63,350 nt of DNA from Candidatus Omnitrophota bacterium (GTDB lineage: Bacteria; Omnitrophota; Gorgyraeia; Gorgyraeales; Gorgyraeaceae), in the NCBI GenBank assembly GCA_042572045.1, contig JBHPFI010000004.1, forward strand, positions 1-63,350, read 5' to 3'. Below are positions 36,062-61,978 of the stretch, piece after piece (the first letter of the stretch is position 1; every line of letters starts with the position of its first letter). Both the position numbers and the translations under genes were made by a program. Under the pieces are notes generated by a model. It was given only the letters and a program-made list of their open reading frames with translations. It had not been told where the DNA came from and made no database searches.

Positions 36062-36102
36062 CTGACTTGAGAAATCAGTCAATCACAAAAGTGTCAAGTT
36101 GG
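36062..36102 (+). mobile_element. Mini inverted-repeat element, copy A (41 bp)
   Basis: CTGACTTGAGAAATCAGTCAATCACAAAAGTGTCAAGTTGG, similar to the reverse complement of 54841-54880. Confidence 0.7.
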
Positions 36103-36159
36103 GGAGGCGGAATAAAAACCATAGTTATAAAAGAATATAAAAAAAATATTATTGGATTC

Positions 36160-37053
36160 ATGATATCGATAATTATAGTGAATTATAACAGGCGTGATTT
36201 GTTAAAGAGATGCCTGGATTCTGTAAGAGGGCAGGGCTTTAAAGATCTAGAGATCATTGTGGTTGACAATGCGTCGTCGGATGACAGCGTTGAAATGGTC
36301 AATGCATACTATCCAGAAGTTAGGCTGATATCCAATACAAGAAATCTCTTTTTTTGTAAGGCCTACAATCAAGGAATAGATGAGTCAAAAGGGAATTTTA
36401 TATTGTGTTTAAATAATGATATTATTCTGGATAAGGATTATTTAAAAGAGGCGCTTAGCGCAATATCTTCAGACACCAAGATAGGCATGATTAGCGGCAA
36501 GGTTTTCAGGATGGATACGAAGATGATAGATTCAACAGGGCTATTTCTGGGTAAAAATAGAAAGGCGATTGAAAGAGGCTATGGCAAAAGAGACGGGAGG
36601 CAATACGAAAAGCCCGAATATATTTTTGGCGTAAGCGGCGCATGCGCGTTCTTCAGGAAAAGCATGCTGATAGATGTAAAAGATAAGAACGGGTACTTTG
36701 ACGAGAGTTTTGCGATGTATTATGAGGATCTGGATTTGTGCTGGAGGGCTCAGAAAAGAGGGTGGAAGGCGTATTATAATCCAAAGGCAACAGCCTATCA
36801 TGTCAGGGCAGGCACGGCAGTTGTCCGCAATGGCAGAAAAGGTCCGAATTTTATATATCTACCAAGGGATTTTAAAAAGATGTACATTGGCAATAGATAT
36901 AAGTGTATAAGAAAAAATGATACATTTTTAGGGGTTTTGGTGAATTTGCCATTTATCCTGTTGTATGAGATAAAGGTATGGGGATACTTGGCCCTTAATT
37001 CAATATTTAATTTTGCCCGAACATTATTCTTCAGACAAAAATCCCTGACTTGA
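36160..37053 (+). CDS. GT2 glycosyltransferase, paralog of 29870..30766
   Basis: 'IIIVNYN', 'VVDNASSD', 'LNNDI', 'VSGACAFF' and 'EDLDLCWRAQKRGWK'. Start placed at ATG 36160. Confidence 0.9.
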   Translation: MISIIIVNYNRRDLLKRCLDSVRGQGFKDLEIIVVDNASSDDSVEMVNAYYPEVRLISNTRNLFFCKAYNQGIDESKGNFILCLNNDIILDKDYLKEALSAISSDTKIGMISGKVFRMDTKMIDSTGLFLGKNRKAIERGYGKRDGRQYEKPEYIFGVSGACAFFRKSMLIDVKDKNGYFDESFAMYYEDLDLCWRAQKRGWKAYYNPKATAYHVRAGTAVVRNGRKGPNFIYLPRDFKKMYIGNRYKCIRKNDTFLGVLVNLPFILLYEIKVWGYLALNSIFNFARTLFFRQKSLT

Positions 37054-37155
37054 CAATTCAGTCAATGACAAAAAGTTATCCGCCTCGTCCTGGTTTCGGT
37101 GGATAATCCGCCGTAGCTTATCTACTATGAAGTTTCTTCTTTGCCGAAGACGGAT
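37045..37155 (+). mobile_element. Inverted-repeat element, copy B (long form, right end missing)
   Basis: Shares exact runs ACAATTCAGTCAATGACAAAA, ATAATCCGCCGTAGCTTATCTAC and ATGAAGTTTCTTCT with the reverse complement of 39801-39936. Confidence 0.8.
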
Positions 37156-37175
37156 CGTCCCTGGAAGGATTTTTC

Positions 37176-37204
37176 TTGACCGCAATAGCAAAACATAGTA
37201 TAAT
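37176..37204 (+). promoter_or_regulatory. Sigma70 promoter of rpsO
   Basis: TTGACC, 17 nt, TATAAT, followed by GGAGGT and GTG 37225. Confidence 0.85.
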
Positions 37205-37224
37205 CTGCGTTCGGAGGTGCACAA

Positions 37225-37494
37225 GTGGCATTGGAAAAGAAAAGAAAAGAAACACTCGTAGCAGATTTTGCTGAGCATGAAAAAGATACGGGTTCTTGCA
37301 GTGTGCAGGTGGCTTTACTTACCGAGCGGATTAATGGTCTTACCGAGCATTTTAAAACTCACAGAAAAGATTTTAATTCCAGGGTAGGTCTTTTGAGATT
37401 GGTAAGCCAGAGAAAAAGGCTGCTGGAATATTTAAAGAGAGAGAATACCGAAAAGTATCGCGGTCTCGTAGAAAAATTAAAACTGAAGAAATAG
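37225..37494 (+). CDS. rpsO: 30S ribosomal protein S15
   Basis: 'HEKDTGSCSVQVALLTERINGLTEHFKTHRKD..SRVGLLRLVSQRKRLLEYL', 89 aa, upstream of pnp. Confidence 0.98.
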   Translation: MALEKKRKETLVADFAEHEKDTGSCSVQVALLTERINGLTEHFKTHRKDFNSRVGLLRLVSQRKRLLEYLKRENTEKYRGLVEKLKLKK

Positions 37495-37508
37495 TTTAAT
37501 TAGGGAAT

Positions 37509-37611
37509 GGGCGCGATTCTTTGGCTGCGCTCAGGACGAATAAGATGCGCCCTGCAAAAAATGTAAGGGTGGCATTTGAAGGTCCTGGTCAAGGTCGATG
37601 AATGTAGCCCT
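37509..37611 (+). other. Two consecutive stem-loops after rpsO (one REP-like)
   Basis: GGGCGC(37509)...GCGCCC(37552) encloses CTTTGGCTGCGCTCAGGACGAA. AGGGTGGCATT(37566) pairs with AATGTAGCCCT(37611). Confidence 0.55.
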
Positions 37612-37616
37612 TCTTG

Positions 37617-37640
37617 GGCGGATTAAAATCCGCCTTTTTT
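37617..37640 (+). terminator. Intrinsic terminator between rpsO and pnp
   Basis: GGCGGAT-TAAA-ATCCGCC followed by T6. Confidence 0.75.
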
Positions 37641-37725
37641 GTCAGATAAATACATGATCCGTCGTAACGGATTCAATTTGTCTGTCGAGATTGGACAAAT
37701 TAAAGAGAGGATAAGGATAAATAAT

Positions 37726-39804
37726 ATGAAAAAAGTTGAAAGAAAGATTGGTAGAGAAAATTTAATTATAGAAACAGGTAAGATGGCGAAGCAGGCAGAC
37801 GGGGCAGTTTGCATACAGTACGGCAGTACAGTATTGCTGGTTACTGCTGTGTGCTCAAGGAAGCTGCGTGAAGGTATGGACTTTTTTCCTCTTACGATAG
37901 AATATCAGGAAAAAACATACGCTGCAGGCAAGATCCCTGGAGGATATTTTAAAAGAGAAGGTCGTCCTACCGAGAAAGAGATTTTGACATGCAGGCTTGT
38001 AGACAGGCCTATAAGACCATTATTCTCCAAAGGATTTATGAACGAGGTTCAGATCTTTGCGATAGTGCTTTCAAGCGACGGGGAGAATGATTCTGATATC
38101 CCTGCAATAATAGGAGCTTCATGCGCGTTGACTATTTCAGATATACCTTTTTTAGGTCCCATAGGAGCAGTGAAGATTGGCCTGATAGACGATGAATTTG
38201 TCATAAACCCTACCTTTAAAGAGCTTGAAGCCAGCAAAATGAATCTGGTCGCAGTTGGACTTAAGGATAGGATTGTTATGCTTGAGGCCGGGGCCAGCGA
38301 GGTTTCAGAAGAGAAGGTGCTCGAGGCAATAAAGTTGGCACAGGGTTATATAAATGAGACCATAGAATTGCAGGAAGGATTGCAGAAGAAGTGCGGAAAG
38401 AAAAAGTTTGAACCAGAGCTAAAAGTTGTGACTAAAGAATTATACGAAAAAGTTAAAAAGCTGTCTGTGTCAAAGTTGAAGGAAATAAATCAGCTCACGG
38501 CAAAGGAACAAAGACAAGAAGCGATCGATATTTTAGGCGATAAGATTATAGAGAAGTTAAAAGGCGAGGATGAATCTCTTGATGATATTGATATAAAGAA
38601 TACATTGATTAAATTAGAAAAAGAGGAGGTCCGAAGTTTCATTCTAGAAGGGAAGAAAAGGATAGATGGGAGAGGGTATGAAGATATAAGGCCTATAAAT
38701 TGTGAGGCTGGGATATTGCCCAGGACACATGGGTCTGGCCTGTTTACAAGAGGGGAGACTCAGAGCTTAGCTACTACAACATTAGGCACGAGTCAGGATG
38801 AGCAGCGTATGGATGCCCTCGAGGGAGAAAGGTTCAAGAGCTTTATGCTGCATTACAATTTCCCGCCATTCAGCGTAGGTGAAGTAAGGCCGACAAGGGG
38901 ACCTGGCAGAAGAGAAATCGGGCATGGCGCTCTGGCAGAAAAGGCCCTTAAGCCAATAATGCCTTCGAGCGAGGAGTTTCCTTACACGGTAAGGGTTGTT
39001 TCAGACATCCTTGAATCAAATGGGTCCAGCAGCATGGCGACTGTTTGTGCCGGCACACTTTCTTTGATGGACGCAGGGGTTCCTATCAAGAAGCCTGTTG
39101 CGGGTATGGCTATGGGTTTAATAAAAGAACAGAGAGGCGCCGCTATCTTAACTGACATAGCGGGTATTGAAGATCATTTTGGAGATATGGATTTTAAGGT
39201 TACAGGAACAGATGCCGGCATTACTGCTGTGCAGATGGACTTGAAGATCGATGGCATAAAGCTCGATCTAATAAAGAAGATAATGGAACAAGCAAAGGCT
39301 GCGAGATTCTTTGTTTTAGATAAAATTTTGGAAATTATAAAGAACCCCAGAGAGAATGTTTCTGAATACGCCCCGAAGATAATCGCTATTACCATAAACC
39401 AGAACAAGATTAGAGATTTGATAGGGCCTGGCGGGAAGGTAATAAAAAGGATCATTCAAGAGACGGGCGCAAACATTGAAGTGGATGATGATGGCAAGGT
39501 CTCTGTTTCATCTGAGAGTGAAGACTCTATCAATAAGGCCATAGAGATTATAAAGGGTATAACAGGCAGCCTGGAAATAGGTACGGTATTTGACGGTACG
39601 ATTACGAGAATTATGAATTTTGGTGCATTTTGCGAAATTCTTCCTGGCAAAGAAGGATTGATACATGTGTCTGAGTTGTCAGATAAGTTTGTTAAAAATG
39701 CAGAAGAGGTTGTGAAGGTCGGTGACAAGGTTAAGGCCAAACTTATCAAGGTAGACGAGAAGGGTAGATTAAATCTGAGCTTGAAGCAGGCACAAGAGTC
39801 CTAA
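37726..39804 (+). CDS. pnp: Polyribonucleotide nucleotidyltransferase (PNPase)
   Basis: 'ETGKMAKQADG', 'DFFPLT', 'RREIGHG', 'ESNGSSSMA' and 'DHFGDMDFKV', plus KH and S1 domains. Start placed at ATG 37726. Confidence 0.98.
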   Translation: MKKVERKIGRENLIIETGKMAKQADGAVCIQYGSTVLLVTAVCSRKLREGMDFFPLTIEYQEKTYAAGKIPGGYFKREGRPTEKEILTCRLVDRPIRPLFSKGFMNEVQIFAIVLSSDGENDSDIPAIIGASCALTISDIPFLGPIGAVKIGLIDDEFVINPTFKELEASKMNLVAVGLKDRIVMLEAGASEVSEEKVLEAIKLAQGYINETIELQEGLQKKCGKKKFEPELKVVTKELYEKVKKLSVSKLKEINQLTAKEQRQEAIDILGDKIIEKLKGEDESLDDIDIKNTLIKLEKEEVRSFILEGKKRIDGRGYEDIRPINCEAGILPRTHGSGLFTRGETQSLATTTLGTSQDEQRMDALEGERFKSFMLHYNFPPFSVGEVRPTRGPGRREIGHGALAEKALKPIMPSSEEFPYTVRVVSDILESNGSSSMATVCAGTLSLMDAGVPIKKPVAGMAMGLIKEQRGAAILTDIAGIEDHFGDMDFKVTGTDAGITAVQMDLKIDGIKLDLIKKIMEQAKAARFFVLDKILEIIKNPRENVSEYAPKIIAITINQNKIRDLIGPGGKVIKRIIQETGANIEVDDDGKVSVSSESEDSINKAIEIIKGITGSLEIGTVFDGTITRIMNFGAFCEILPGKEGLIHVSELSDKFVKNAEEVVKVGDKVKAKLIKVDEKGRLNLSLKQAQES

Positions 39805-39936
39805 CTTTACACATGAAATTGATCCATCCGCCTTCGCCACAGAAGAAACTTCATCGTAGATAAGCTACGGCGGATTATTCACCGAAAGTCGAACTAGGGT
39901 GGATAACTTTTGTCATTGACTGAATTGTAAAGTTAG
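39801..39936 (-). mobile_element. Inverted-repeat element, copy C (136 bp, complete)
   Basis: Perfect 11-bp terminal inverted repeats CTAACTTTACA / TGTAAAGTTAG. Internal CCGCC...GGCGG hairpin. The left end contains the pnp TAA. Confidence 0.85.
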
Positions 39937-39945
39937 TGGAGATAG

Positions 39946-40686
39946 ATGAGCGTAGCTACGGCAATAATCTCGGGTATCGTGCAGGGCGTAACAGAGTTCT
40001 TGCCGGTTTCAAGTTCAGGTCACCTTGTTATCCTCCACAAATTAACAGGATTAGAAGAACCGCAGATATTTTTTGATATTTTTTTACATGTAGGTACCCT
40101 GCTAGCTATATTCATAGTATTCTGGAATGATATAGTAGGACTGGTAACCACAAAAAAACGGATAGGTTTTTTTGTTTTTATAGGCACGGCATCCACAGCG
40201 TTTTTTGTGTTGGTTTTTGGAAAAGGGATTGAATCTGCGTTTGGCAATCTCAAGATTGTAGGCGCAATGCTTATTGTGACAGGCATCTGGCTTATCCTTG
40301 GAAATTTTCTAAGATTTGGCACAGGGCCTCTATCGGGATTTAAGGCGATTTTGATAGGACTGGCGCAAGGTGTGGCTCTTTTGCCAGGCATATCAAGGAG
40401 CGGCGCAACTATTTCCACAGCCCTTTTTCTGGGTATTGACGCTAAAAGCTCAGCAAGGTTTTCCTTTTTGCTATCCATACCGGCGATTATAGGGGCACTT
40501 TTATTCAAGATAAGAGAAACCGCCTTTTTGGGTTTTAGCGTAAATTATTTTTTTGGTCTTATCGCCTCTTGCATTGTCGGCATTTTATCATTAAAATTGT
40601 TATTAAGAATGCTTTACGGTAATAAGTTTCACCTGTTTGGTTTTTACTGTATCTTTGCAGGGATGCTTGTATTGCTGGTGTTATGA
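39946..40686 (+). CDS. uppP: Undecaprenyl-diphosphate phosphatase
   Basis: 'VQGVTEFLPVSSSGHL', 'HVGTL', 'PGISRSGATI' and 'ARFSFLLSIP'. Confidence 0.95.
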   Translation: MSVATAIISGIVQGVTEFLPVSSSGHLVILHKLTGLEEPQIFFDIFLHVGTLLAIFIVFWNDIVGLVTTKKRIGFFVFIGTASTAFFVLVFGKGIESAFGNLKIVGAMLIVTGIWLILGNFLRFGTGPLSGFKAILIGLAQGVALLPGISRSGATISTALFLGIDAKSSARFSFLLSIPAIIGALLFKIRETAFLGFSVNYFFGLIASCIVGILSLKLLLRMLYGNKFHLFGFYCIFAGMLVLLVL

Positions 40687-42905
40687 AGAGACAAAAAAAG
40701 GATCTTATAATTTCTTTTGGCTTGTTTACAGTGGCCTTGCTTTTGCTGGCCTCCATGGTTTCTTACTCTCCCTATGATATTCGCTTTGAAACATCCGATC
40801 CTAATTCTCCTATACGAAATTATATTGGCATAGTAGGCGCCTATGTTGCATGGAGTATCTTTAAAATTATAGGATATGCAGGGTTTCTTATACCCTTTCT
40901 CTGTTTTATTTGGGGCATTGGCGGTTTGGCAGAGAGATCGGAACAGAGGCCATTGTTTAAATATTTGGGAATAATCCTATTATTTTGTTCAAGCGCATCG
41001 TTCTTTAGTCTGACAGGCGTAGAGGATTCTGTGTTGATGGTGGAAAGGGGAGGGATATTAGGCCTATTTCTATCGCAGATTATCCTTGGATATTTTGGGA
41101 GTATTGGAGGGTATATTATAACTTTTACCTTGACCATTTTGGCACTTATAGTTGCTACTGAATTTTTAATCATTCCGTTGGTTTCATTTTTATTTTTACA
41201 TACATGGAATGCGTTAGGGAATCTAAGAAAAAAACGCCCCCACAAGGCACTGTTTGGAAAGAAAGAAGGGACTGAAGCAAAACCAAGAATAAGGCCTGCA
41301 GTGAAGATGGAGAGGTCCGAACATATAACGCAAAGCGCAAAGACCATAGATGCGCAAGAGAAGAAAAAGTACGAGAAAAAGAAAGAAGGACCTGTTTTAC
41401 CGAAGATTGTGCTACCAAAGCCCGATCCAAAGCCAGTTTCTAAAAGACCTGTAAGGATTGAACCAAGGGTGGTCGGAGATTATAAATTGCCAACCTTGAA
41501 TTTATTGAATTCACCTCCGCCTGTGTCAGAAAGGATGCTGGGAGAGGATCTGGAAGCCAGCGCCAGGATACTTGAAGATACATTGCGCGATTTCAATATA
41601 GAAGCAAAGGTAGTAAATGTAACTAAAGGCCCTGTCATTACCAGATACGAATTGCAACCAGCCCCTGGCGTAAAGGTTAATAAGATTACGGCATTGAACG
41701 ACGATATAGCGCTTGTCATGAAGGCCTCAACTGTCAGGATTGTGGCGCCTATACCTGGAAAATCAGCAGTTGGCATAGAGGTGCCTAATCAGAGCATGTC
41801 TTTGGTTTATCTCAGGGAATTGCTTGAATCCAGTGAATATCAGAAAAAGGCAGTATCTTCAAAGCTTACCATTGCGCTTGGAAAGAATATTTCTGGCAAG
41901 AGCGTAGTCGCGGACCTTGGAGATATGCCGCATCTTTTGATAGCAGGCACTACTGGCTCTGGAAAGACCGTGTGCGTAAATTCATTGATAATGAGTATGA
42001 TATATAACGCCACCCCGGATGAATTGAAATTTTTAATGGTAGATCCAAAAATGGTAGAGCTGGCCATTTATAATGACTTGCCGCATCTTTTATGTCCCGT
42101 GATTACTGATGTAAAGAAGGCCTCAGGCATGCTCGATTGGGCGGTAAATGAGATGGAAGAAAGATATAAGATGCTGGCGAAGCTTACCGCCAGAAACATA
42201 GATGCATTTAATAAAAAGTCGGATAAAAAGCTTCCTTATATAGTTATTATCATAGATGAACTGGCAGATCTCATGATGGTAGCGCAGCAGGACGCAGAGA
42301 ATGCAATCACAAGGCTCTCACAGCTTTCCAGGGCAGTAGGCATACATATAATACTTGCTACGCAGAGACCTTCGGTGGATGTTGTGACGGGTGTGATAAA
42401 GGCGAACTTTCCCGCAAGGATATCTTTTAAAGTAGCGTCAAAGGTGGACTCTAGGACTGTTCTGGACATGAACGGAGCTGATAAATTATTAGGCAAGGGT
42501 GATATGTTGTTCTTACAGCCTGGCAGCGCGAAACCAATAAGGGCGCAAGGCACGCTCCTTACAGATTGCGAGATAGAAAAGGTTACCAAGGTGGTAAAAG
42601 AGCAGCGCGAGGCAATTTATGACGATGAAATACTCAAGCGGCAGAAGAAGAGCGCATCCAGTAGGGGCGGATTTGAGAAGGATGAATTTTTTGATGAGGC
42701 CGTAAGAATGGTTCTTGAAACAGAACAGGCGTCTGTTTCAATGCTCCAGCGCAGGCTTAGATTGGGATACACAAGGGCCGCTAGATTAATAGATGCCATG
42801 GAAGAGGAAGGGATCGTGGGCCAGTTTAGAGGAAGTAAACCCAGAGAAATCTTGATAAAAGAGTATAAAGGTAAAGAAGAATCTAGCGAGTTAGATTCTC
42901 AATAA
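40683..42905 (+). CDS. ftsK: DNA translocase FtsK/SpoIIIE
   Basis: 4TM N-terminus, 'PHLLIAGTTGSGKT', 'DPKMVEL', 'IIDELADLM', 'ATQRPSVDV' and gamma domain 'SVSMLQRRLRLGYTRAARLID'. Confidence 0.97.
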   Translation: MKRQKKDLIISFGLFTVALLLLASMVSYSPYDIRFETSDPNSPIRNYIGIVGAYVAWSIFKIIGYAGFLIPFLCFIWGIGGLAERSEQRPLFKYLGIILLFCSSASFFSLTGVEDSVLMVERGGILGLFLSQIILGYFGSIGGYIITFTLTILALIVATEFLIIPLVSFLFLHTWNALGNLRKKRPHKALFGKKEGTEAKPRIRPAVKMERSEHITQSAKTIDAQEKKKYEKKKEGPVLPKIVLPKPDPKPVSKRPVRIEPRVVGDYKLPTLNLLNSPPPVSERMLGEDLEASARILEDTLRDFNIEAKVVNVTKGPVITRYELQPAPGVKVNKITALNDDIALVMKASTVRIVAPIPGKSAVGIEVPNQSMSLVYLRELLESSEYQKKAVSSKLTIALGKNISGKSVVADLGDMPHLLIAGTTGSGKTVCVNSLIMSMIYNATPDELKFLMVDPKMVELAIYNDLPHLLCPVITDVKKASGMLDWAVNEMEERYKMLAKLTARNIDAFNKKSDKKLPYIVIIIDELADLMMVAQQDAENAITRLSQLSRAVGIHIILATQRPSVDVVTGVIKANFPARISFKVASKVDSRTVLDMNGADKLLGKGDMLFLQPGSAKPIRAQGTLLTDCEIEKVTKVVKEQREAIYDDEILKRQKKSASSRGGFEKDEFFDEAVRMVLETEQASVSMLQRRLRLGYTRAARLIDAMEEEGIVGQFRGSKPREILIKEYKGKEESSELDSQ

Positions 42906-43027
42906 CAATAAGAGGTTTAGACTTAAGCTGCCGACAGATTCCTACTTTTATATGTTCCAAATGTTAAAGGCAGGCATATTTAATATTAAAAAAACACAGA
43001 TTTATTTTAGATACATCCAAAAGAACA

Positions 43028-43780
43028 ATGCCTGAATCTCCTGGAAAAACGCTCAAGAAAATACGAGAAGCAAAACAGCTTTCCATAGAAGAAGTTTCAG
43101 AAAGAATCCGTATCCCCAAAAAAATCATATCAGCTATAGAAGAAGACAGATTGCAAGAAATAGCATCTAGTTTTTACGCAAGGACTTTTGTGAAGTCATA
43201 TTCTCAGTTTCTGGGAGCGCTGGGAGAAAAGACAGTAAAAGAATACCTGGACGGCACTCAGAAAAAAGAGAAACCTGTGCTTATTCTGAAAGGCGAAAAG
43301 GTACAAGGGGAATGGTTTATAAAATATAAAAGATACATAGGCCTTAGCATACTGGCTCTCTTTGGCGTCTGGATGTTCTTTTTCAGTCTTCTGCAGATAA
43401 GGAAGTTCATAAAATATGTTTCTACGAAAGCCCGTGTCCAGATTGCCAGAAAACAAGAACCTAGCAGTAAAACCAAGTTGCCTGATAAAGTCACCTTGAT
43501 ATCAACAACCACTTCGGCTAAAAAGATACAGGGGTTTGATCTTGAAATTATAGCGCGTGTCGATACATGGGTGCATGCTACAGAAGACGGGAAACTCTTA
43601 TTTAAAGGCATATTGAAAAAGAAACAAAAAGATGTCTGGCGCGCAAAAAAAGAAATAAAGTTAGAGCTTGGCAATGCCGGGGGTGTAGTGCTGAAACTTA
43701 ATAGAAAAAATCTGGGTCCTATTGGCAAGAAAGGGCAAAAAAAGGAAATTATTATTACAAAAGATGGAATAAAGCAATAA
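43028..43780 (+). CDS. rodZ: RodZ-like protein (HTH, TM, DUF4115-like C-terminus)
   Basis: 'GKTLKKIRE..LSIEEVSERIRI', 'YARTFVKSYSQFLG', a single TM and 'ELGNAGGV.L.LN'. Lies between ftsK and rimO. Confidence 0.75.
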   Translation: MPESPGKTLKKIREAKQLSIEEVSERIRIPKKIISAIEEDRLQEIASSFYARTFVKSYSQFLGALGEKTVKEYLDGTQKKEKPVLILKGEKVQGEWFIKYKRYIGLSILALFGVWMFFFSLLQIRKFIKYVSTKARVQIARKQEPSSKTKLPDKVTLISTTTSAKKIQGFDLEIIARVDTWVHATEDGKLLFKGILKKKQKDVWRAKKEIKLELGNAGGVVLKLNRKNLGPIGKKGQKKEIIITKDGIKQ

Positions 43781-43810
43781 GCTATAAACAGTAAGCTATT
43801 GTTTAAGAGA

Positions 43811-43837
43811 GGGGGGGGGGATTATCCCCCGTTTTTT
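43811..43837 (+). repeat. G10 homopolymer forming GGGGGA-TTA-TCCCCC hairpin plus T6 just before the rimO start
   Basis: Read directly: G x10 at 43811-43820, then ATTATCCCCCGTTTTTT, then ATG 43838. Confidence 0.8.
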
Positions 43838-46106: not shown

Positions 46107-46134
46107 AGACTTTATTTTTCTATATTGTCTTTTT

Positions 46135-46306: not shown

Positions 46307-46338
46307 TCTCCGAATTTCTACGAAGGAGCCCAGCGTTT

Positions 46339-46908: not shown

Positions 46909-46911
46909 GGA

Positions 46912-48174
46912 TTATCGATAGCGTTTCAATAACTCCAGTCTCAACATATCCAAGGCTGCCTGCGCGGCTTTATATTTTACGATCTTCCGCTGCCCAAGGA
47001 AGTGGAATTCTTTAGAAATAGTTTTTTTGTTTGTTGAAAGCGCGACATAGACAAGCCCCACGGGTTTTTTCTTAGCGCCGCCTCCGGGTCCAGCAATGCC
47101 GCTAATGCCTATACCTATATCAGTTTCAGCCAAGACCCTTACATTTTTTGCCATTAAACCTGCTACTTTTTTTGAAACCGCGCCATATCTTTTTATGGTT
47201 TTTAGAGGTATATTTAGGATTTTATTTTTTGATTCGTTGCTGTAGACTACAATGCCCGTTCTGAAATATCTGGAGCTTCCGGGGACAGATGTTATTCGAT
47301 CTCCAAGAAGTCCTCCTGTGCAGGATTCAGCAATAGATAATGTTTTCTTCGCGTTTAAAAGGCATTTTCCCGCGGCCTGTTCCAGGTTTTCATCGTCATA
47401 TCCGAAGATATAATTCTTTAGTCGAGACCTAATCCTTTTTTCTATGTTATCTATTGTAGAATTTATTTTATGCCTATTTTGTTCAGTTAGAGTTATTTTT
47501 ACATTTATTTCTCCGGGATGAGGGTATATGCCCATCTGGACATTGCCCTTAATTTTTAATATATCTTTTATTTTTTCATTCACGCTTGACTCCGGAAGGC
47601 CTGTTATTCTTATGAGGCGCGATTTAACTATTTTGCCTGTTTGGAAATTTTTCTTCAGAAACGGTATAATAGTTCTTTTAAGCATGGGGTATATCTCAAA
47701 AGGCACACCTGGCACAGCAATCAATGCTTTTTTATAAAGAGGGATTAAGAGGCCGGGCGCGGTTCCAATATTGTTCAATATAGGTTTTGCCCCTTCTGGG
47801 ACAAGGGCCTGGCGGAGGTTATTTTTAGGCATTTTCAGCTTTCGTTTTTTAAAATGCGCTTTTATGTGCTTCGCAACCTTATCCTGAAAGATTAGTTTTT
47901 TATCCAAAGCCCTTGCTATACATTCAAGCGTTAGATCGTCAACAGTAGGACCAAGGCCCCCCGTCAAAATAACAATGCTCGAATTATTTAAGGCAGCCCT
48001 AATAGAAGAAATAATGATTTCAGGCTCATCTGGGATGGATATGTGTCTGGTTGTTCTTATGCCAGCAGAGGAAAGATTTCTTGATATATATTCAGCGTTT
48101 GTGTTTGTAATGTGCCCTAATAAAATTTCGTTTCCTATACAGATTACAGATGCGGATATTTCCATAGCACCCAT
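46912..48174 (-). CDS. cinA: Competence/damage-inducible protein CinA (MoCF-binding plus PncC domain)
   Basis: 'IGNEILLG..TNTNA', 'TGGLGPTVDDLT', 'GTAPG', 'AESCTGGL' and 'SGIAGPGG'. Confidence 0.95.
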   Translation of the reverse strand: MGAMEISASVICIGNEILLGHITNTNAEYISRNLSSAGIRTTRHISIPDEPEIIISSIRAALNNSSIVILTGGLGPTVDDLTLECIARALDKKLIFQDKVAKHIKAHFKKRKLKMPKNNLRQALVPEGAKPILNNIGTAPGLLIPLYKKALIAVPGVPFEIYPMLKRTIIPFLKKNFQTGKIVKSRLIRITGLPESSVNEKIKDILKIKGNVQMGIYPHPGEINVKITLTEQNRHKINSTIDNIEKRIRSRLKNYIFGYDDENLEQAAGKCLLNAKKTLSIAESCTGGLLGDRITSVPGSSRYFRTGIVVYSNESKNKILNIPLKTIKRYGAVSKKVAGLMAKNVRVLAETDIGIGISGIAGPGGGAKKKPVGLVYVALSTNKKTISKEFHFLGQRKIVKYKAAQAALDMLRLELLKRYR

Positions 48175-48228
48175 TATATGTAAGATTTAAGCTATAATCA
48201 ATACTTTATTTAATAATATACTCCCTTG

Positions 48229-48301
48229 ATAACTTGATAAATCCTCAATGACAAAAGTTGTCCGCCTCTGGCTGATGGATCAATTTCATGTGTCAAGTTA
48301 G
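48229..48301 (+). mobile_element. Inverted-repeat element, copy D (73 bp)
   Basis: TAACTTGATAAATCCTCAATGACAAAAGT is identical to the reverse complement of copy E. The right arm GATGGATCAATTTCATGTGTCAAGTTAG nearly matches copy C. Confidence 0.8.
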
Positions 48302-48375
48302 CAAGGAATGCCAGGGCCATGAAAAATTTTTTGAAAGAAATTGCAAGAATATGTGTCTTGTATGGCGGGAGGTGA

Positions 48376-48384
48376 TGCTATAAT
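48376..48384 (+). promoter_or_regulatory. Extended -10 element (TGCTATAAT), candidate recA promoter
   Basis: TGnTATAAT about 130 nt upstream of the recA ATG. No good -35 at 17 nt. Confidence 0.45.
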
Positions 48385-48512
48385 TTTCTTTACTTTAATA
48401 TGTTAGAGTTGTATAATTTTAGCAAAGTCAGTGGGTTAGAGAATAACGCAACAAAAAGGTCGAAGTTAACTTTGTCTGCCTGAAGTAGGCTTATCTATAG
48501 GGGGGATATAAA

Positions 48513-49547
48513 ATGGTAAAAAAAGAGGAAAAGAAGACGATATCCAAAGATGGTAAGGGAAAGGCGTTGGATATGGCGCTTACGCAAATAGAGAAACAGT
48601 TTGGCAAGGGTTCCATTATGAGGTTGGGCAATAATACAAAGCTTGACGTTGAAGTGATTCCAACAGGAGCGCTGTCTCTTGATCTGGCTTTAGGGGTTGG
48701 CGGCGTGCCAAGGGGCAGGGTTGTGGAGATCTTTGGTCCTGAGGCAGGAGGTAAGACCACTTTAACTCTGAGCATTATTTCAGAGGTCCAGAAACAGGGC
48801 GGGGTAGCTGCTTTTATAGATGCCGAACATGCATTAGACCCTGTTTATGCTAAGAAGCTAAGAGTAAAACTGGATGACCTTTTGATATCTCAGCCAGATA
48901 CGGGTGAGCAGGCGCTTGATATCGTGGAGATGCTTGTGCGCAGCAACGCCGTTGACCTTATTGTTATAGATTCTGTGGCAGCGCTGGTACCGAAGGCGGA
49001 AATAGAAGGAGAGATGGGGGATAGGCATATAGGGCTTCAGGCAAGGCTGATGTCGCAGGCGCTGAGGAAATTGACAGCCATTATTGCAAAATCAAATACC
49101 TGTGTTATCTTCATAAATCAAATAAGAATGAAAATAGGGGTTATGTTCGGCAATCCTGAAACCACAACAGGAGGAAGGGCATTAAAATTTTATTCTTCTG
49201 TAAGAATAGATTTAAGGAGAATAAGCGTCCTAAAATCAGGAGACAATGTGATTGGTGCAAGGATAAGGGCCAAGGTTGTCAAAAATAAGGTAGCACCCCC
49301 TTTTAGAAAAACTGAATTTGATATTATGCATGACGAGGGCATCTCTAATCCAGGGAGCATTTTAGATCTAGGGGTTGAGACAGGGGTTTTAGAAAAGTCT
49401 GGTTCATGGATAACATATGAGAAGGAGAAGATAGGGCAAGGCAGAGAATCTGCCAGAGAATTCTTGAGAAACAATCTTAAGATGAGCAATGAGATTGAGA
49501 AAAAGATCAAGGAACTAGCGCTTGTTAAGTCCTCAGAGAAGAAATAA
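48513..49547 (+). CDS. recA: Recombinase RecA
   Basis: '[15 protein letters not shown]', 'GPEAGGKTT', 'IDAEHALDP', '[14 protein letters not shown]' and '[10 protein letters not shown]'. 344 aa, no intein. Confidence 0.99.
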
Positions 49548-49624
49548 CCGCAATGCTTTCAATATTGATTACGCCCGGTCCGGCCTTTAACCCCTGTCTA
49601 TTCATAAAGGAGGAAACATAGGTT

Positions 49625-51070
49625 ATGAGGACATGGAGAGGTCTTGTTTTAACGCTTGCAATATTTTTGATAACAGGCGTTGTCTCTGCCGGCCCTCCGC
49701 AAGAGGCCCTTAGTTTGCAGGAGGCATTTGTTGAAGTCTCTAAAAAAGTTGGACCTGCTGTTGTTAGCATAAGCACAGAGCATACAGAGCGCTATCAGAC
49801 CAGATATTATCCTTTTGCGCTCTTTGAGGATAGATTTTTTGATGAATTTTTTGATGATTTTTTTACGACCGGCCCTGACAGGGAATTCAAGAGACTTGGC
49901 CTTGGCTCAGGAGTTATCATTGATAAAGAGGGCTATATACTTACAAACGAGCACGTGATCCGTGGCGCAGACAGGATTACTGTTACCTTGCCTGATGGCA
50001 GGGCGTTTGATGGCCATGTAACAGGTTTTGATATGTATTCGGACTTGGCAGTTGTTAAGATTGAGCCAAAGGGCGAGTTACCATTTGCCGAATTAGGCGA
50101 TTCAGATGAAGTAGAGATAGGTCATTGGGCAATAGCGATCGGTAATCCTTTTGCCTTTGCAGTAAAAAATCCAGAGCCAACGCTTACCGTAGGAGTGGTA
50201 AGCGCTTTAAATAGAAGTCTTCCAAGGACAGACAGGAGGATCAGGGAGTATTCTGATTTAATACAGACAGACGCTGCTATCAATCCAGGCAATAGCGGTG
50301 GCCCGCTGGTGAATATTCACGGTAAGATAATAGGTGTAAATGTCGCTATTTTTACTTTGAGCGGCGGTTCCGAAGGCATAGGTTTTGCAGTGCCGATAAA
50401 TACAGCCAAGAGGATAATGGATGATTTGATGCAGGGCAAAGAGGTCCTTTATGGTTGGATAGGCGTGATTATTCAAGATATTGATTCTGACCTGGCTGAC
50501 TATTTTGGTTTAAAGAGTAAATACGGTGTTTTGATTTCTAGGATTTTGGAAAAAAGCCCGGCTGAGGAAGCTGGTTTAAAAGCAGGGGACGCGATAGTTT
50601 CTTTTGAGAATGAGAAAATAAGAAACACCCATGATTTAATCAGGACGGTTTTAAAGAAAGATATAGGCGAAAAAGCAGCCCTCGGCATATTAAGAGAGGA
50701 TGGTCTTCAATCTATCGACGTAGAGATAGGAAAGAGGCCGCAAGAAAAGAGCGTGAAGACAGAAGAGAAACTAAAGGCCGCGCCAGAGTCACGAATAGGG
50801 TCTAAATTTTGGAGGGGGCTTGAGGTTTCTGAGATTACACCTGAGATAGCAAGGCGTTTTAAGCTGAGCGCTGGATCAGGGGTCATTGTCATGGATGTGA
50901 CACCAGGTAGACCTGCTGAAAAATCCGGAATAAGGCCGGGAGATGTGATTTATGAAATAAACAGGATCCATGTCAAAAATATGAATGACTACAAAAAGGC
51001 CGTGTTAAGCGTTTCAGGAGATGTTTTGGTCGGGACATACAGAGGTTACGTAATAATAAAAGAGAACTAA
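49625..51070 (+). CDS. degP: DegP/DegQ (HtrA) periplasmic serine endoprotease with two PDZ domains
   Basis: Signal peptide, 'GLGSGVII', 'TNEHV', 'SDLAVVKI' and 'QTDAAINPGNSGGPL'. Confidence 0.93.
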   Translation: MRTWRGLVLTLAIFLITGVVSAGPPQEALSLQEAFVEVSKKVGPAVVSISTEHTERYQTRYYPFALFEDRFFDEFFDDFFTTGPDREFKRLGLGSGVIIDKEGYILTNEHVIRGADRITVTLPDGRAFDGHVTGFDMYSDLAVVKIEPKGELPFAELGDSDEVEIGHWAIAIGNPFAFAVKNPEPTLTVGVVSALNRSLPRTDRRIREYSDLIQTDAAINPGNSGGPLVNIHGKIIGVNVAIFTLSGGSEGIGFAVPINTAKRIMDDLMQGKEVLYGWIGVIIQDIDSDLADYFGLKSKYGVLISRILEKSPAEEAGLKAGDAIVSFENEKIRNTHDLIRTVLKKDIGEKAALGILREDGLQSIDVEIGKRPQEKSVKTEEKLKAAPESRIGSKFWRGLEVSEITPEIARRFKLSAGSGVIVMDVTPGRPAEKSGIRPGDVIYEINRIHVKNMNDYKKAVLSVSGDVLVGTYRGYVIIKEN

Positions 51071-51080
51071 ATGGGAATCA

Positions 51081-53600
51081 ATGAAGGTTGATGAAATAAG
51101 AGATAGATTTTTAAGATTTTTTGAAAAGCGGGACCACGCGATTTATCCCAGCGATTCGCTTGTCCCTGCTAATGATTCTACCCTTCTTTTTACAGGAGCA
51201 GGTATGAATCAGTTTAAGGAGGAGTTTTTGGGCAGGGTAAGGGGCTCTAAAAGGGCTGCTACATGCCAGAAATGTTTAAGGACAGGTGATCTTGAGAATG
51301 TGGGTAAGACGCCCAACCATCATACATTTTTTGAGATGCTTGGAAATTTCTCATTCGGTGATTATTTTAAAAAGGAGGCGATTGTTTGGGCCTGGGAATT
51401 CCTTAAGGAGGACCTGGGCTTGAAAGAAGGAGATCTATGGGTATCTGTGTATCAGGATGATAGCGAGGCATATGATATATGGAAAAATATCGTTAAATTG
51501 CCTCAAGAGAGGATTTTAAAATTAGGAGCAAAAGAGAATTTCTGGCCGTCGAATGCACCGGCCGATGGACCAAACGGTCCATGCGGACCCTGTTCCGAGA
51601 TTTTTTATGGAGGGCCGGATGGTGTGGAGGTCTGGAATCTTGTATTTACGCAGTTTGACAGGAGAGAAGGAGGCGCGCTGGATCCTTTGCCGAATAAAAA
51701 CATAGATACTGGTATGGGGCTCGAGAGGATCGCAAGGGTCATGCAGGGAAAAAAGACGAATTTTGAGATAGATTCATTCCGACCTATTATAGATACAATA
51801 AAGGAGCTAGCCTCAAGACCTAATGTACAGAAAAATATAAACGCGATCGCGGATCACATACGGGCTGTTACCTTCGCGATAGCTGACGGGGTATTGCCAT
51901 CCAATGAAGACAGGGGCTATGTAATCCGCAAGCTAATAAGAAAGGCGTTTTGGTATGGCAGGTCGCTTGGACTCCAAGGACCGTTTCTGTATAAAATAGT
52001 GCCTGTAGTAGCAAAGGTAATGAAAAAGGTATACCCTGAACTTACCGGCCAAAGAGAAGATATCGCGCAGGTGGTCTTGGCTGAAGAGAAGAGGTTTACG
52101 AATACTATCCAGGAAGGACTTGAAAGGCTGGAAACAATGATGGATAATTCTAAGTCTTCAGGCGTGCTTTCCGGGATAGATGTTTTCAAGCTATATGATA
52201 CATATGGTTTTCCTGTAGAATTGACGCAAGCTATAGCAAGGAATAAAAAGATAGATGTAGATATTAAAGGATTTGAAAGATGCATGAAAGAACAGCGCGT
52301 CAAATCAAAAGAGAAGAGCAAGATAAAAGGCTCTATATTCGAGGTCAAAGGAGACACAAAACTAAGATTGCCTGAGGAGACAATTTTTATAGAAGATAAG
52401 GAGGAAATGGAGACCGAGGTCTTGCAGATTACAGGAAATGCTATTTTTTTAAAAGAGACAAATTTTTATGGAGAAAAAGGCGGACAGGTAGGCGATTCAG
52501 GCTGGCTGATCAGAGACGGTAAGGTTGTCGCAGACGTTATTAATGCGATTGATGTCGCAGGCAGGGTGCAGCATGAAATAAAAGCAAAAGAGAAAGGATT
52601 GAAGATAGGCGACAAGGTAATAGCGAAAATAGATATTGATCGCAGAGAAAAAATAAAGAAGAACCATACTGCAACGCATCTCCTGCACAATGCCTTAAGA
52701 AAGGTTTTGGGACAGCACGTGAAACAATCAGGCTCCCTTGTTGCGCCGGACCGCTTGCGGTTTGATTTTAGACATTTTAAGGCGCTTACGGAAGAAGAAC
52801 TTTCTAGGATAGAAGAGATCGTGAACGGCTATATAAAAAAGAATAACTGCATAGAGACTAAAGAGATGGCTTTCAATGAGGCAAAAAGAGAGGGCGCGAT
52901 TGCTCTTTTTGGGGAAAAGTACGGAGACAGGGTGCGATTGGTTTCTGTAGGGGGTTACAGCAAGGAATTGTGTGGAGGTATGCATGTAAGAGAAACAGGC
53001 GAGATAAATATATTTAAGATTATCTCAGAGGGTTCTATTGCGAGCGGCGTAAGAAGGATTGAGGCTGTTACATGGGAGAGGGCCAATAAAAAGATCAAAG
53101 AACAAGAGGATTTAATAAGGCAAATAGCCATAGAATTGAAAACATCCCCTGAGGGTATACTTAAGGCAATAGAAAACATGACACAGAGACTTAAAGGATT
53201 GGAAAAAGAATTAGAGGATATAGGCACTAAGACTGTAGAACTTAGCATAAATAGCGTCGTAGAGAATAAAAAAGAGATAAAAGGTAATCATATTATCATT
53301 GATGAGATTAAAAACGCAGATATGGATTTACTGAGAAAGGCCGCGGATATAATAAAAAGTAGATTAAAAGAAGGCGTATTTGTGCTTGTGTCTGAGAAAG
53401 GGAATAAGACTTCAATGATCGTGAGCGTATCTCTTAAAGATGCAAACTTAAGCGCGATCAAGATTTTAAACGATACAGGCTCTTCCTTTGGCATAAAAGG
53501 CGGGGGCAGGCCTGATTTTGCCCAGGCTGGTGGGCGTTCAAACGTTGATATCGGTAAGATATTGAAAAAAGCAGAAGATGTAATAAAGGGGTATTTATGA
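51081..53600 (+). CDS. alaS: Alanine--tRNA ligase
   Basis: 'LLFTGAGMNQFK', 'HHTFFEMLGNFSFGDYFK', 'IDTGMGLERI', editing motifs 'HTATHLLH' and 'ELCGGMH', and 'GGGRPDFAQAGG'. Confidence 0.99.
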   Translation: MKVDEIRDRFLRFFEKRDHAIYPSDSLVPANDSTLLFTGAGMNQFKEEFLGRVRGSKRAATCQKCLRTGDLENVGKTPNHHTFFEMLGNFSFGDYFKKEAIVWAWEFLKEDLGLKEGDLWVSVYQDDSEAYDIWKNIVKLPQERILKLGAKENFWPSNAPADGPNGPCGPCSEIFYGGPDGVEVWNLVFTQFDRREGGALDPLPNKNIDTGMGLERIARVMQGKKTNFEIDSFRPIIDTIKELASRPNVQKNINAIADHIRAVTFAIADGVLPSNEDRGYVIRKLIRKAFWYGRSLGLQGPFLYKIVPVVAKVMKKVYPELTGQREDIAQVVLAEEKRFTNTIQEGLERLETMMDNSKSSGVLSGIDVFKLYDTYGFPVELTQAIARNKKIDVDIKGFERCMKEQRVKSKEKSKIKGSIFEVKGDTKLRLPEETIFIEDKEEMETEVLQITGNAIFLKETNFYGEKGGQVGDSGWLIRDGKVVADVINAIDVAGRVQHEIKAKEKGLKIGDKVIAKIDIDRREKIKKNHTATHLLHNALRKVLGQHVKQSGSLVAPDRLRFDFRHFKALTEEELSRIEEIVNGYIKKNNCIETKEMAFNEAKREGAIALFGEKYGDRVRLVSVGGYSKELCGGMHVRETGEINIFKIISEGSIASGVRRIEAVTWERANKKIKEQEDLIRQIAIELKTSPEGILKAIENMTQRLKGLEKELEDIGTKTVELSINSVVENKKEIKGNHIIIDEIKNADMDLLRKAADIIKSRLKEGVFVLVSEKGNKTSMIVSVSLKDANLSAIKILNDTGSSFGIKGGGRPDFAQAGGRSNVDIGKILKKAEDVIKGYL

Positions 53601-54817
53601 AGATTCTAAGGTTGGCTAGTAAAGAGATGGAGAATTTATTCGAAAGATACTATTATAAAAAGAAACGTGTAGCGGAAAAAGTCAGTAAGATTGTACAAGA
53701 TGTAAGAGAAAATGGAGATAAGGCGCTCATCAGATATACCAGGATGTTTGATAAGGTTAAGCTTTCTCCAAAGGATTTAAAAGTAAGCGCAAACGAGATC
53801 AATGGCTCGTACCAGAATATAGATACAGATTTTATATCGAGCCTTAAGACTATAATTGATAATATACAAAAGTTTCATAAAAAACAATTGCCAAAACCCT
53901 GGAAGATAAAACAAGAGGAGGGCGTGGAATTAGGAGAGATCTTTAGGCCTATCGAAAGCGTAGGGATTTATGTGCCAGCAGGTACAGCGCCTCTTGTTTC
54001 GAGTGTTTATATGAGTGTTTTGCCTGCAAGGATAGCGGGTGTAAAGAAGATAATTCTCGCTACACCCCCTATGAAATTCGGAAACGTTGATCCGCATATA
54101 CTTGCAGTGGCAAATCTTTTAAAGGTTGACGAGGTCTATAAGATAGGCGGCGCTCAGGCAATAGCGGCTATGGCCTTTGGTACAAAGACGATTCCAAAAG
54201 TAACCAAGATTATCGGTCCAGGCAATGACTATGTCACTGAGGCCAAGCGACAGGTATTTGGATATGTTGACATAGATATGCTGGCGGGACCTAGCGAGGT
54301 TGCAATATTGGCAAATCAGTTTTCAGACAAGGATTACGTTGTTCACGACCTTTTGGCTCAGGCAGAGCACTTGAAAGGCCTGTCAATACTTATAACTACG
54401 TCTAAAAAATTTGCCAAGGTAATGAAGAAGGAAATAGATAAAGGATACATTGTGCTCACAAAGAATATAGAACAGGCAGCGGAAATCATAAACAGAATTG
54501 CGCCGGAGCATCTTGAGATACTCATAAAAAGGCCTAATAGGATCCTGAAACTCATAAAGAACGCAGGCGCAGTGTTTATAGGACCCTATTCGCCTGTTTG
54601 TATAGGGGATTACATAGCTGGGCCGAGTCATGTGCTGCCGACAGGAGGGACGGCTAGATTTTTTTCAGGACTTAGCGTGAGGTCTTTTCTTAAAAGCACG
54701 CACACGATTTGTTATTCCAAAAAAGCGCTTGAGAAAGAAAAAACAGCTATTGAGAAGATGACAAAGATAGAAGGCCTGCACAATCATTTGGAATCGTTTA
54801 AGGTAAGGTTTAAATAA
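53597..54817 (+). CDS. hisD: Histidinol dehydrogenase
   Basis: 'GIYVPAG', 'GGAQAIAAMAFGT', 'AGPSEV', 'DLLAQAEH', 'APEHLE' and 'GDYIAGPSHVLPT'. Confidence 0.96.
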   Translation: MKILRLASKEMENLFERYYYKKKRVAEKVSKIVQDVRENGDKALIRYTRMFDKVKLSPKDLKVSANEINGSYQNIDTDFISSLKTIIDNIQKFHKKQLPKPWKIKQEEGVELGEIFRPIESVGIYVPAGTAPLVSSVYMSVLPARIAGVKKIILATPPMKFGNVDPHILAVANLLKVDEVYKIGGAQAIAAMAFGTKTIPKVTKIIGPGNDYVTEAKRQVFGYVDIDMLAGPSEVAILANQFSDKDYVVHDLLAQAEHLKGLSILITTSKKFAKVMKKEIDKGYIVLTKNIEQAAEIINRIAPEHLEILIKRPNRILKLIKNAGAVFIGPYSPVCIGDYIAGPSHVLPTGGTARFFSGLSVRSFLKSTHTICYSKKALEKEKTAIEKMTKIEGLHNHLESFKVRFK

Positions 54818-54840
54818 AATGGTTGGCTGTACAGGTCTTT

Positions 54841-54880
54841 CTAACTTGACACTTTTGTCATTGAGGATTTATCAAGTTAG
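54841..54880 (-). mobile_element. Mini inverted-repeat element, copy E (40 bp)
   Basis: CTAACTTGACACTTTTGTCATTGAGGATTTATCAAGTTAG, with 9-bp perfect termini CTAACTTGA / TCAAGTTAG. Confidence 0.8.
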
Positions 54881-61925: not shown

Positions 61926-61930
61926 ATCTG

Positions 61931-61970
61931 ATCCGCCAAAGGCGGATTTAATTCGTCCGCGCAAGGCGAA
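61931..61970. repeat. REP-like hairpins ATCCGCC-AAA-GGCGGAT and TTCGTCCGCGCAAGGCGAA
   Basis: Read directly in the pcm-downstream gap. The TCCGCC/GGCGGA core recurs at other intergenic sites. Confidence 0.6.
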
Positions 61971-61978
61971 CTCATTAA

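Follow-up and report, generated by a model that had tools for sequence, protein, structure and literature searches.

REP/BIME-like composite palindromic repeats in an Omnitrophota genome and the probable acquisition of GC-rich hairpins by a short core

Analysis of a 63,350-nucleotide stretch from a Candidatus Omnitrophota bacterium (the window below; contig C4 of assembly GCA_042572045.1, here G000) revealed that five short inverted-repeat elements in it, designated copies A to E, belong to a non-coding, hairpin-forming repeat family that resembles repetitive extragenic palindromic (REP) elements and bacterial interspersed mosaic elements (BIMEs). With 123 catalogued copies, it is the most abundant repeat family of the G000 assembly. 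A preliminary description of the window had reported the five copies, at 36062, 37045, 39801, 48229 and 54841, as a non-autonomous family of nested sizes that arose either by internal deletion or from a core that acquires REP inserts. All five are present at these coordinates, with the common left arm, the right terminus TGT(C/A)AAGTT(A/G)G, the GATGGATCAATTTCATGT shared by copies C and D and the TCCGCC hairpins as described, and the genome-wide count bears out that they belong to a real family of dispersed, non-autonomous inverted repeats whose size classes are nested. As to its origin, free hairpins and the short cores of relatives favour the second proposal over the first: we consider it probable that the long forms consist of a short core with inserted GC-rich hairpins, and do not form a deletion series.

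The G000 assembly comprises 1.64 Mb in 66 contigs, with a G + C content of 40.5% and a completeness of 81%; its PNPase is nearest to those of Candidatus Omnitrophota metagenome-assembled genomes (73-76% identity). Omnitrophota are uncultured bacteria with small genomes. Comparisons for G000 were made with other genera of the same bacterial family, no genome of its own genus being among them; the family set comprised 38 genomes, and relatives' genomes and loci are given G- and L-numbers, respectively. Exact-pattern scans of genome-contig and metagenome-contig collections, and an exact-protein look-up of RpsO, gave no match.

Copies were catalogued in G000 by a Hamming scan with two left-arm consensus sequences, T1 and T2, which yielded 73 short forms, 41 long forms and 9 short variants. 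The short forms comprise 48 T1 copies of 41 bp and one of 39 bp, and 24 T2 copies of 40 bp, the subfamily signatures being ..GACAAATCAGTCAA.. for T1 and ..GA[T/G]AAATCCTCAA.. for T2. Thirty-four long forms, of 73-141 bp, are complete; a further 16 copies have no recognisable right end, and truncated and decayed copies are common in the catalogue. The core unit of 40-41 bp, CTAACTTGAcAAATCAGTCAATGACAAAAGTGTCAAGTTAG, is bounded by a perfect 11-bp outer stem or terminal inverted repeat (TIR), CTAACTTGACA/TGTCAAGTTAG, and CTAACTTGACA is the top non-low-complexity 11-mer in G000 (97 occurrences). The short-form junction 24-mer, with up to 3 mismatches allowed, was found 71 times in G000, 0 times in the reversed-genome control, and 0-5 times in each of 40 relatives. 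Each short core contains three to four TTGAC/GTCAA pentamers, which are able to form two small inner hairpins inside the outer stem, and its predicted fold as single-stranded DNA has an energy of -8.6 kcal/mol (z = -4.0).

Alignment of the 34 complete long forms revealed a strictly modular structure with fixed arms and one to four hairpin units, in the order left arm, optional hairpin A, obligatory hairpin B, conserved tail and right terminus. Hairpin A is either short, T[AG]T[CT]CGCC-GCAG-GCG[AG]ATAA, or long-looped, TTATCCACC-N14-GGTGGATAA, and is sometimes doubled; hairpin B is TCCGCC-N3-GGCGGA, and the general form of the GC hairpins is T[AG]T[CT]CGCC-N3-GGCGGATAA. The tail reads TGG(A/C)TCAATTTCAT, also given as (TGG)CTCAATTTCAT. 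The insertion point is invariant, AAAAGT^GTGTCAAG, in the loop of the 3′ inner hairpin. Forms of 73/74 bp have hairpin B only, those of 91/92 bp short A and B, those of 101-104 bp long A and B, and those of 117-141 bp extra units, with a 129/130 bp class also present; every size class was found with both T1 and T2 left arms. When folded, the long forms have an outer stem closing a multiloop of GC hairpins (-20.4 kcal/mol, z = -6.3, for the 92-nt form). A third level of nesting, a 36-bp insert GTAGCTTATCTAC...GAAGTTTCTTC, was seen within G000 only in copies B and C, with one fragment at C2:56660. The GC-rich hairpins would represent another type of repeat, of which between one and four in series would have entered the core at a fixed point, and copies B and C would have received a further insert within the loop of one inserted hairpin.

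The same hairpins occur outside the family. Perfect CCGCC-N3-GGCGG hairpins numbered 45 in G000 and 0 in the reversed control; 27 lie within cores and about 13 are free in intergenic DNA, several of the free ones having a CTCATTAAA tail that resembles the in-core tail. Several of the roughly 13 free hairpins also stand directly upstream of a ribosome-binding site (for example at C3:10145, C35:13283 and C32:12062). A different palindrome, a REP of 26 nt with the GTAG tag, is nested at another core position at G000:C2:53809.

The short core is the prevailing form among relatives. Of the 72 copies in a 260-kb portion of G009, 71 are plain cores of 39 bp and the other has an insert before the right arm, and G004, G002 and G020 have near-perfect palindromes of 39-41 bp whose right half, TGTCAAAAGTG(T/C)CAAGTTA, is as in the G000 core. 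The pnp-uppP junction, which in G000 holds a 136-bp form, has at the same place a remnant in L081 and, in L082 from another Omnitrophota genus, a simple core of 39 bp that provides the pnp stop through its TAA. In the spacer between rpsO and the GT2 glycosyltransferase gene, G009 and G008 have cores of 39-41 bp, G001 and G005 have different palindromes, and about 8 relatives have none. Among 81 complete copies in G000, 6, including copy D, have flanks that lengthen the palindrome by 4-8 bp, versus 0.5 expected, which fits insertion into the centres of pre-existing palindromes. Judged from the sequences, accretion of inserts onto a short ancestral core agrees better with the data than a deletion series.

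The arm pattern AACTTNACA-N15-23-TGTNAAGTT was found in 27 of the 38 family genomes, the copy number per genome ranging from 0 to 373 with 11 genomes having none; the reversed control gave 0, except for 3 per strand in G009. Cores in the relatives measure 35-41 bp and share arms of the type TAA(C/G)TTnACA...TGTnAA(G/C)TTA, in which n covaries between the arms (G/C, T/A, C/G), and their interiors are genome-specific. The G000 core is this genome's version of a superfamily of repeats with a long history in the bacterial family concerned. High copy numbers were counted in G009 (373), G051 (189) and G008 (130), and the numbers range from 0 to 189 within genus g6; such strong variation is typical of mobile or selfish repeats.

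The persistence of single copies was followed between the congeners G009 and G021, which have about 85% DNA identity, at 26 G009 sites with alignable flanks (L046-L058 on G009:C1 and L059-L080 in G021). A family element was found at exactly the same position in G021 at 15 sites, another palindrome at 6 and an unrelated short sequence at 2, and 3 sites were cleanly empty; in the reverse direction, G021 sites offered no usable empty site in G009. The empty-site comparison that the preliminary description had proposed thus yielded three clean sites, which are too diverged for the junction to be read. At 15 of the 15 shared sites, TAACTT...AAGTTA in G009 corresponds to TAAGTT...AACTTA in G021, the same paired C:G to G:C swap, and each genome keeps the other arm type as a minority, with hybrids in G009. 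Since an identical swap at every shared site cannot be produced by independent substitution, many orthologous copies appear to evolve in concert, through short-tract conversion or in-place replacement. Signs of homogenisation are also seen in G000: copies B and C, which occupy two old sites separated by 2.7 kb, have the derived 36-bp insert in common, each architecture occurs on both left-arm types, and long forms are clustered along the contigs (15 adjacent long-long pairs versus 9.2 expected, p = 0.013). A further repeat family, AAAAATAGGGACAGACACCTATTTTT, was observed in G021 (L070, L067 and L078; sites 35, 41, 63 and 64), sometimes within TAAGTT...AACTTAA arms, at sites with an ordinary core in G009.

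Placement in G000 was determined with genes called crudely from open reading frames (ORFs). Of the 123 copies, 122 lie outside ORFs in a genome that is about 92% coding, and 98 of 121 are in co-directional, 18 in divergent and 4 in convergent spacers. The co-directional copies are oriented 54:44 relative to transcription, so the location at gene boundaries in both orientations, first noticed in the window, holds genome-wide. Little of the spacer is left free by a copy, the median distances being 10 nt to the stop codon upstream and 30 nt to the start codon that follows. Of the 98 co-directional copies, 31 themselves supply the stop codon of the upstream gene, as TAA at element positions 2-4 in 22 and as TGA at positions 7-9 in 9. 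Of the earlier suggestion that the family can reshape gene ends and promoters, the part on gene ends stands and the part on promoters is not supported, as -10-like hexamers were not enriched (15% of copies versus 19% of background had one at the right distance). A hybrid promoter function is not supported for this reason, and neither is an intrinsic terminator: a T-run within 12 nt was found for 10% of copies versus 11% of background spacers, and only the few copies noted above are in convergent spacers. Copies are predicted to be co-transcribed because they are located in operon spacers and at stop codons, and in the transcripts they would fold into stable hairpins beside ribosome-binding sites and stop codons. 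By analogy with REPs, they probably act at most as passive mRNA hairpins.

The five copies of the window and their parts are listed below.

Table. Positions of the repeat copies, their parts and a free hairpin pair in the window
Feature	Position	Strand	Description
Copy A	36062..36102	+	41-bp short core, subfamily T1 (CTGACTTGAGAAATCAGTCAATCACAAAAGTGTCAAGTTGG)
Copy B	37045..37155	+	111-bp long form, left arm and inserts, without right terminus
Copy B, left arm	37045-37075		T1
Copy C	39801..39936	-	complete 136-bp form
Copy C, left arm	39936-39906	-	read on the minus strand
Copy C, long-loop hairpin	39905-39875	-	
Copy C, TCCGCC/GGCGGA hairpin	39874-39827	-	
Copy C, third-level insert	39868-39833	-	36 bp, in the loop of the TCCGCC/GGCGGA hairpin
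Copy C, tail	39826-39813	-	TGGATCAATTTCAT
Copy C, right terminus	39812-39801	-	
Copy D	48229..48301	+	73-bp form in divergent spacer
Copy D, left arm	48229-48258		T2
Copy D, GC hairpin	48259-48275		one hairpin
Copy D, tail	48276-48289		TGGATCAATTTCAT
Copy D, right terminus	48290-48301		
Copy E	54841..54880	-	40-bp short core, exact match to T2 consensus
Free-standing GC hairpin pair	61930..61975	+	GATCCGCCAAAGGCGGAT and CGTCCGCGCAAGGCGAAC, then CTCATTAAAT tail, outside any core

Copy A lies in a divergent spacer, with a minus-strand gene on one side and a GT2 glycosyltransferase gene on the other, and has TG instead of TA at both of its ends. In copy B the left arm is followed by the long-loop hairpin TTATCCGCC..GGTGGATAA and then by a TCCGCC hairpin with the 36-bp insert in its loop; the TGA at 37051-37053, within the copy, is the stop codon of the upstream GT2 gene. 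Where its right terminus is missing, a conserved rpsO promoter, TTGACC-N17-TAGTATAAT, follows on the 3′ side. This promoter (37170-37224 in the window; L011-L024 in the comparison) and its spacing to the start codon are conserved in at least 14 genera of the bacterial family, and the spacer upstream of it is a hotspot, with a different palindromic repeat in nearly every genome. Copy C contains the pnp stop codon, TAA at 39802-39804, and the uppP start lies 9 bp past its opposite end. The flanks of copy D, CCTTG/CAAGG, lengthen its palindrome by 5 bp, and copy E is situated between a plus-strand gene ending at 54817 and lipB, which starts at 54895. A repeat finder matched B to C over 111 nt at 83%, found a right part of 32 nt common to C and D, and found the left arms of D and E identical over 29 nt; a scan of the window for the terminal 11-mer revealed no copies beyond the five. 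The hairpins at 61930..61975 are the same kind of module as those nested in the long forms. The idea that B and C flank rpsO-pnp as a composite transposon or inversion was rejected, as the order and orientation GT2-rpsO-pnp-uppP are the same in relatives.

As to the spread of the family, cores and modules might be propagated and homogenised through single-stranded hairpin intermediates, formed as cruciforms or at the replication fork, by a hairpin-specific recombination activity, for which a Y1/HUH-type enzyme is the obvious candidate, and/or by short-tract gene conversion; exposed loops of existing palindromes would then be the preferred landing sites. Several observations weigh against hairpin acquisition spread in this manner. 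The tail is common to all long forms, and one founding insertion followed by amplification and recombination is indistinguishable from repeated insertion. An insertion in progress was not caught: of 26 sites compared in the two congeners, 3 are cleanly empty, and their junctions have diverged beyond reading. Covariation inside G000 is weak: among 72 distinct short forms, pair 10-32 of the outer stem is G:C in 6 versus C:G in 34, and the 12 G:C in inner hairpin 1 are essentially the T1/T2 subfamily split. Symmetrical changes of the arms would also be expected if one protein binds both arms. The core termini CTAACTTGACA/TGTCAAGTTAG have neither the GTAG nor the CGTC tag of classical REPs, and no mobilising enzyme was identified in the 81% complete assembly.

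The candidate enzymes count on the same side. The only Y1_Tnp/RAYT-like gene of G000 (RAYT, REP-associated tyrosine transposase; C9:375-1685) encodes 436 aa with an intact HUH motif and YIHxNP tyrosine, and barely passes the NCBIfam model REP_Tyr_transpos (80.8 bits versus a cut-off of 80). A transmembrane helix is also present in its product, and so is a C-terminal domain found again in neighbouring genes. The gene lies behind a c-di-GMP-I-GGC riboswitch (G000:C9:173-251, locus L009; RF03167, 61.4 bits versus a gathering score of 59) and a terminator, ATCCAGGCAATTTGCCTGGATTTTTTT, and the riboswitch leader is kept upstream of Y1 orthologues in six other genera; it is unusual for an HUH protein to be under second-messenger control. 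A degenerate T2-like copy is found 270 bp upstream of the gene. Full-length orthologues are present in G007, G012, G001 and G047, all with 0 copies, and G009, with its 373 copies, is without one. A canonical short RAYT of G009 (C1:179345-179857) has GTAG REPs, GTAGGGGAGCCTTAAGGCTCCCCTAC, on either side in place of cores. A RAYT as the specific mobiliser of the family was thus rejected on phyletic grounds. A longer AACTTATCCACA palindrome encloses these GTAG REPs of G009, and the RAYT together with its flanking REPs makes up a classical REPtron within the bacterial family that also carries the untagged TAACTT elements. In G000, separate GTAG REPs of 26-28 nt occur in 3 copies (C2:53809, C22:24910 and C23:25402). 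REPs of the form GTAG-N7-TTTAAA-N7-CTAC (26-28 nt) were also seen inside the glycosyltransferase ORF upstream of rpsO in L011 (G007), L021 (G004) and L024 (G025); their occurrence within that GT2 gene at about the same place in several genera looks like in-frame insertion.

Two other origins of the size classes and copies have to be set against hairpin acquisition. If the long forms came first, an ancestor of about 136 bp or longer would have spread and the 104-, 92-, 74- and 41-bp forms would have followed by successive internal deletions between short direct repeats. The nested sizes, the two ends common to all forms and the GT microhomology at the short-form junction agree with such a series; the tandem hairpin units GGCGGATAA-TCCGCC could mediate slippage, which may alter the unit number and probably explains some of its variation. 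Against the series stands the near-exclusive presence of the short core in relatives from other genera (71 of 72 copies in G009, and likewise G004, G002, G020, G006 and G008). Moreover, the orthologous copy at the pnp stop is a simple 39-bp core in another genus, the short junction is identical in the T1 and T2 subfamilies, the inserted hairpins occur independently elsewhere in the genome, and the largest forms are rare or unique, the insert of B and C having been seen twice plus one fragment. A deletion series is already largely contradicted by these data, and we regard it as very unlikely. It is only a little less improbable that the family consists of true miniature inverted-repeat transposable elements (MITEs), derived from and mobilised in trans by a member of the IS630/Tc1-mariner class of DDE transposases. 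The target of these enzymes is a TA, often part of CTAG, which becomes duplicated on insertion, so that the C-TA...TA-G ends would be a duplicated target plus TIRs, and the size classes would be internal rearrangements. Most copies do end in C-TA-ACTTGACA...TGTCAAGT-TA-G and have the perfect 11-bp TIR CTAACTTGACA; copy A has TG in place of TA at both ends, the over-representation of TAA among the junction stops (22 versus 9 TGA) would be explained if elements had entered stop codons at their TA, and copy numbers differ greatly among related genomes. The terminal variants, however, change independently at the two ends and not as direct repeats, and a TA within conserved ends is indistinguishable from the TIR itself, the three empty sites being too diverged to decide. 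The preliminary description had seen no target-site duplication (TSD) or transposase in the window. Across G000, no direct repeats were found flanking the termini of the copies, and the assembly contains no DDE transposase of the IS630, IS4/5 or rve type (DDE_3, DDE_Tnp_1 and rve genes), which is not proof because it is 81% complete. Of the 38 family genomes only 2 have DDE_3, and these two contain 3 and 1 copies of the repeat; the high-copy genomes G009, G051 and G008 lack DDE_3. No long element was found between such termini, the two congeners have most sites stably occupied, and the 40-bp short form is below the typical MITE size. The MITE label of the preliminary description is not supported, there being no demonstrable TSD, no autonomous insertion sequence (IS) found with these termini, and no IS630-type gene in the high-copy relatives.

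A host function of the copies is somewhat less remote, although still unlikely in our view. The arms would be bound by a conserved protein, such as a regulator, a nucleoid protein or, given the TTGACA repeats, sigma region 4, or the copies would be mRNA hairpins that punctuate operons through mRNA processing, stabilisation or translation uncoupling; selection and not transposition would keep them, and the inserts would be tolerated passengers. The preliminary description had named fixation at orthologous sites with only the palindromic ends conserved as the mark of transcription-factor operators, and part of this picture was found: arms are conserved across genera while interiors vary, 15 of 26 G009 sites are occupied at the exact same position in G021, and the pnp-stop and GT2-rpsO sites are occupied across genera. 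Paired arm changes leave the stem intact, and the copies fill operon spacers close to the stop (median 10 nt) and the start (median 30 nt). Operators themselves are unlikely because genomes of a single bacterial family have anything from 0 to 373 copies, 11 of 38 lacking any copy, and because most copies are at gene 3′ ends or inside operons. Both orientations are equally frequent, neither T-runs nor -10 boxes are enriched beside the elements, and the copies are not concentrated at promoters, 98 of 121 lying between co-directional genes. Rfam gave no match at the gathering threshold in the window and no relevant match at E ≤ 1 in 36000-40000, and truncated and decayed copies are common. Closer to the acquisition of hairpins by a core is another possibility, which we raise tentatively and hold to be rather doubtful: the TAA(C/G)TTnACA palindromes may be maintained by an active hairpin-directed copy-correction system, not left to ordinary decay, with their loops capturing hairpin modules hierarchically. 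This is suggested by the orthologous copies swapped in concert, the insert shared by B and C and the palindrome loops that have captured further hairpin modules. The enzyme of such a system could be a Y1/HUH protein, for instance the riboswitch-controlled one, or another.

No paper linking Omnitrophota with REP, RAYT, MITE or REPIN, and no repeat family described for Omnitrophota, was found in the literature that could be searched. The family reaches 373 or more copies in a 1.6-Mb relative, about one per four genes, provides a stop codon for about one in four of the genes upstream of its copies and fills operon spacers, and it will confuse gene callers, promoter predictors and assemblers. It offers a clean natural system for the spread of REP-like repeats without a GTAG tag or RAYT, for palindromes as landing pads for palindromes, and for the concerted evolution of dispersed 40-bp repeats. 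No new principle is established, as the behaviour is that known for REP/BIME-type repeats; the interest is moderate and lies mainly in the palindrome-in-palindrome architecture and the hint of concerted evolution.

The closest match among known systems is with REP/BIME sequences. Like these, the Omnitrophota repeats are short (20-40 bp) imperfect palindromes with about 100 or more intergenic copies in both orientations, often within operons, and they share stop-codon-supplying termini, mosaic clusters with a variable number of hairpins, REPs inside longer palindromes and a strongly lineage-dependent abundance. REP termini that supply stop codons have been described (Di Nocera et al. 2013, PMC3733652), as have REPs nested in larger target palindromes, namely GTAG-15 of A. 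variabilis, GTAG-23 of T. roseum and CGTC-1 of H. neapolitanus, including 41-bp palindromes in the last (PMC3733652). The same study reported CGTC REPs that have no transposase of their own, described RAYT-like genes with TIR families at their flanks, and found no empty target palindromes unlinked to REPs in A. variabilis and H. neapolitanus (PMC3733652). In contrast, "empty" palindromes are the majority in G000 (73 of 123); the Omnitrophota core ends in CTAAC/GTTAG without a GTAG or CGTC tag, is AT-rich with TTGACA repeats and not GC-rich, and no REPtron, that is, no RAYT flanked by Omnitrophota cores, was found.

With REPIN-RAYT systems (Bertels and Rainey 2011, PMC3116915; bioRxiv 10.1101/2021.07.10.451892) the family shares long vertical persistence in a lineage, genome-specific master sequences and a single-copy Y1 transposase-like gene in the genome. 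It differs in that the distribution of Y1 orthologues does not follow the repeat family, the Y1 gene of G000 is riboswitch-controlled and has membrane and C-terminal extensions, and in a relative the canonical RAYT has GTAG REPs at its flanks. Correia elements measure 104-157 bp and have 26-bp TIRs, a demonstrable TA duplication and functional promoters; like the Omnitrophota family, they come in discrete size classes that differ by an internal segment. These elements (CREE/NEMIS of Neisseria, of the MITE class; Delihas 2011, PMC3184786) are alike in adjoining genes, being co-transcribed and being able to alter gene ends, and in having TIRs with TA at both ends. The Omnitrophota unit, unlike them, has 40 bp, no demonstrated TSD and no promoter signal, and owes its sizes to added hairpins. 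Small dispersed repeats (SDR) of heterocystous cyanobacteria, which Elhai and co-workers are said to have described in 2008, are reportedly palindromic mobile repeats of about 20-30 nt without a recognised transposase. They too are very small repeats, which reportedly insert within one another and within other hairpins, although they come from a different phylum and have unrelated sequences. What distinguishes the Omnitrophota family from all of these systems is the combination of untagged AT-rich arms of the TTGACA type, no mobiliser found, many unoccupied cores and the apparent concerted change of orthologous copies.

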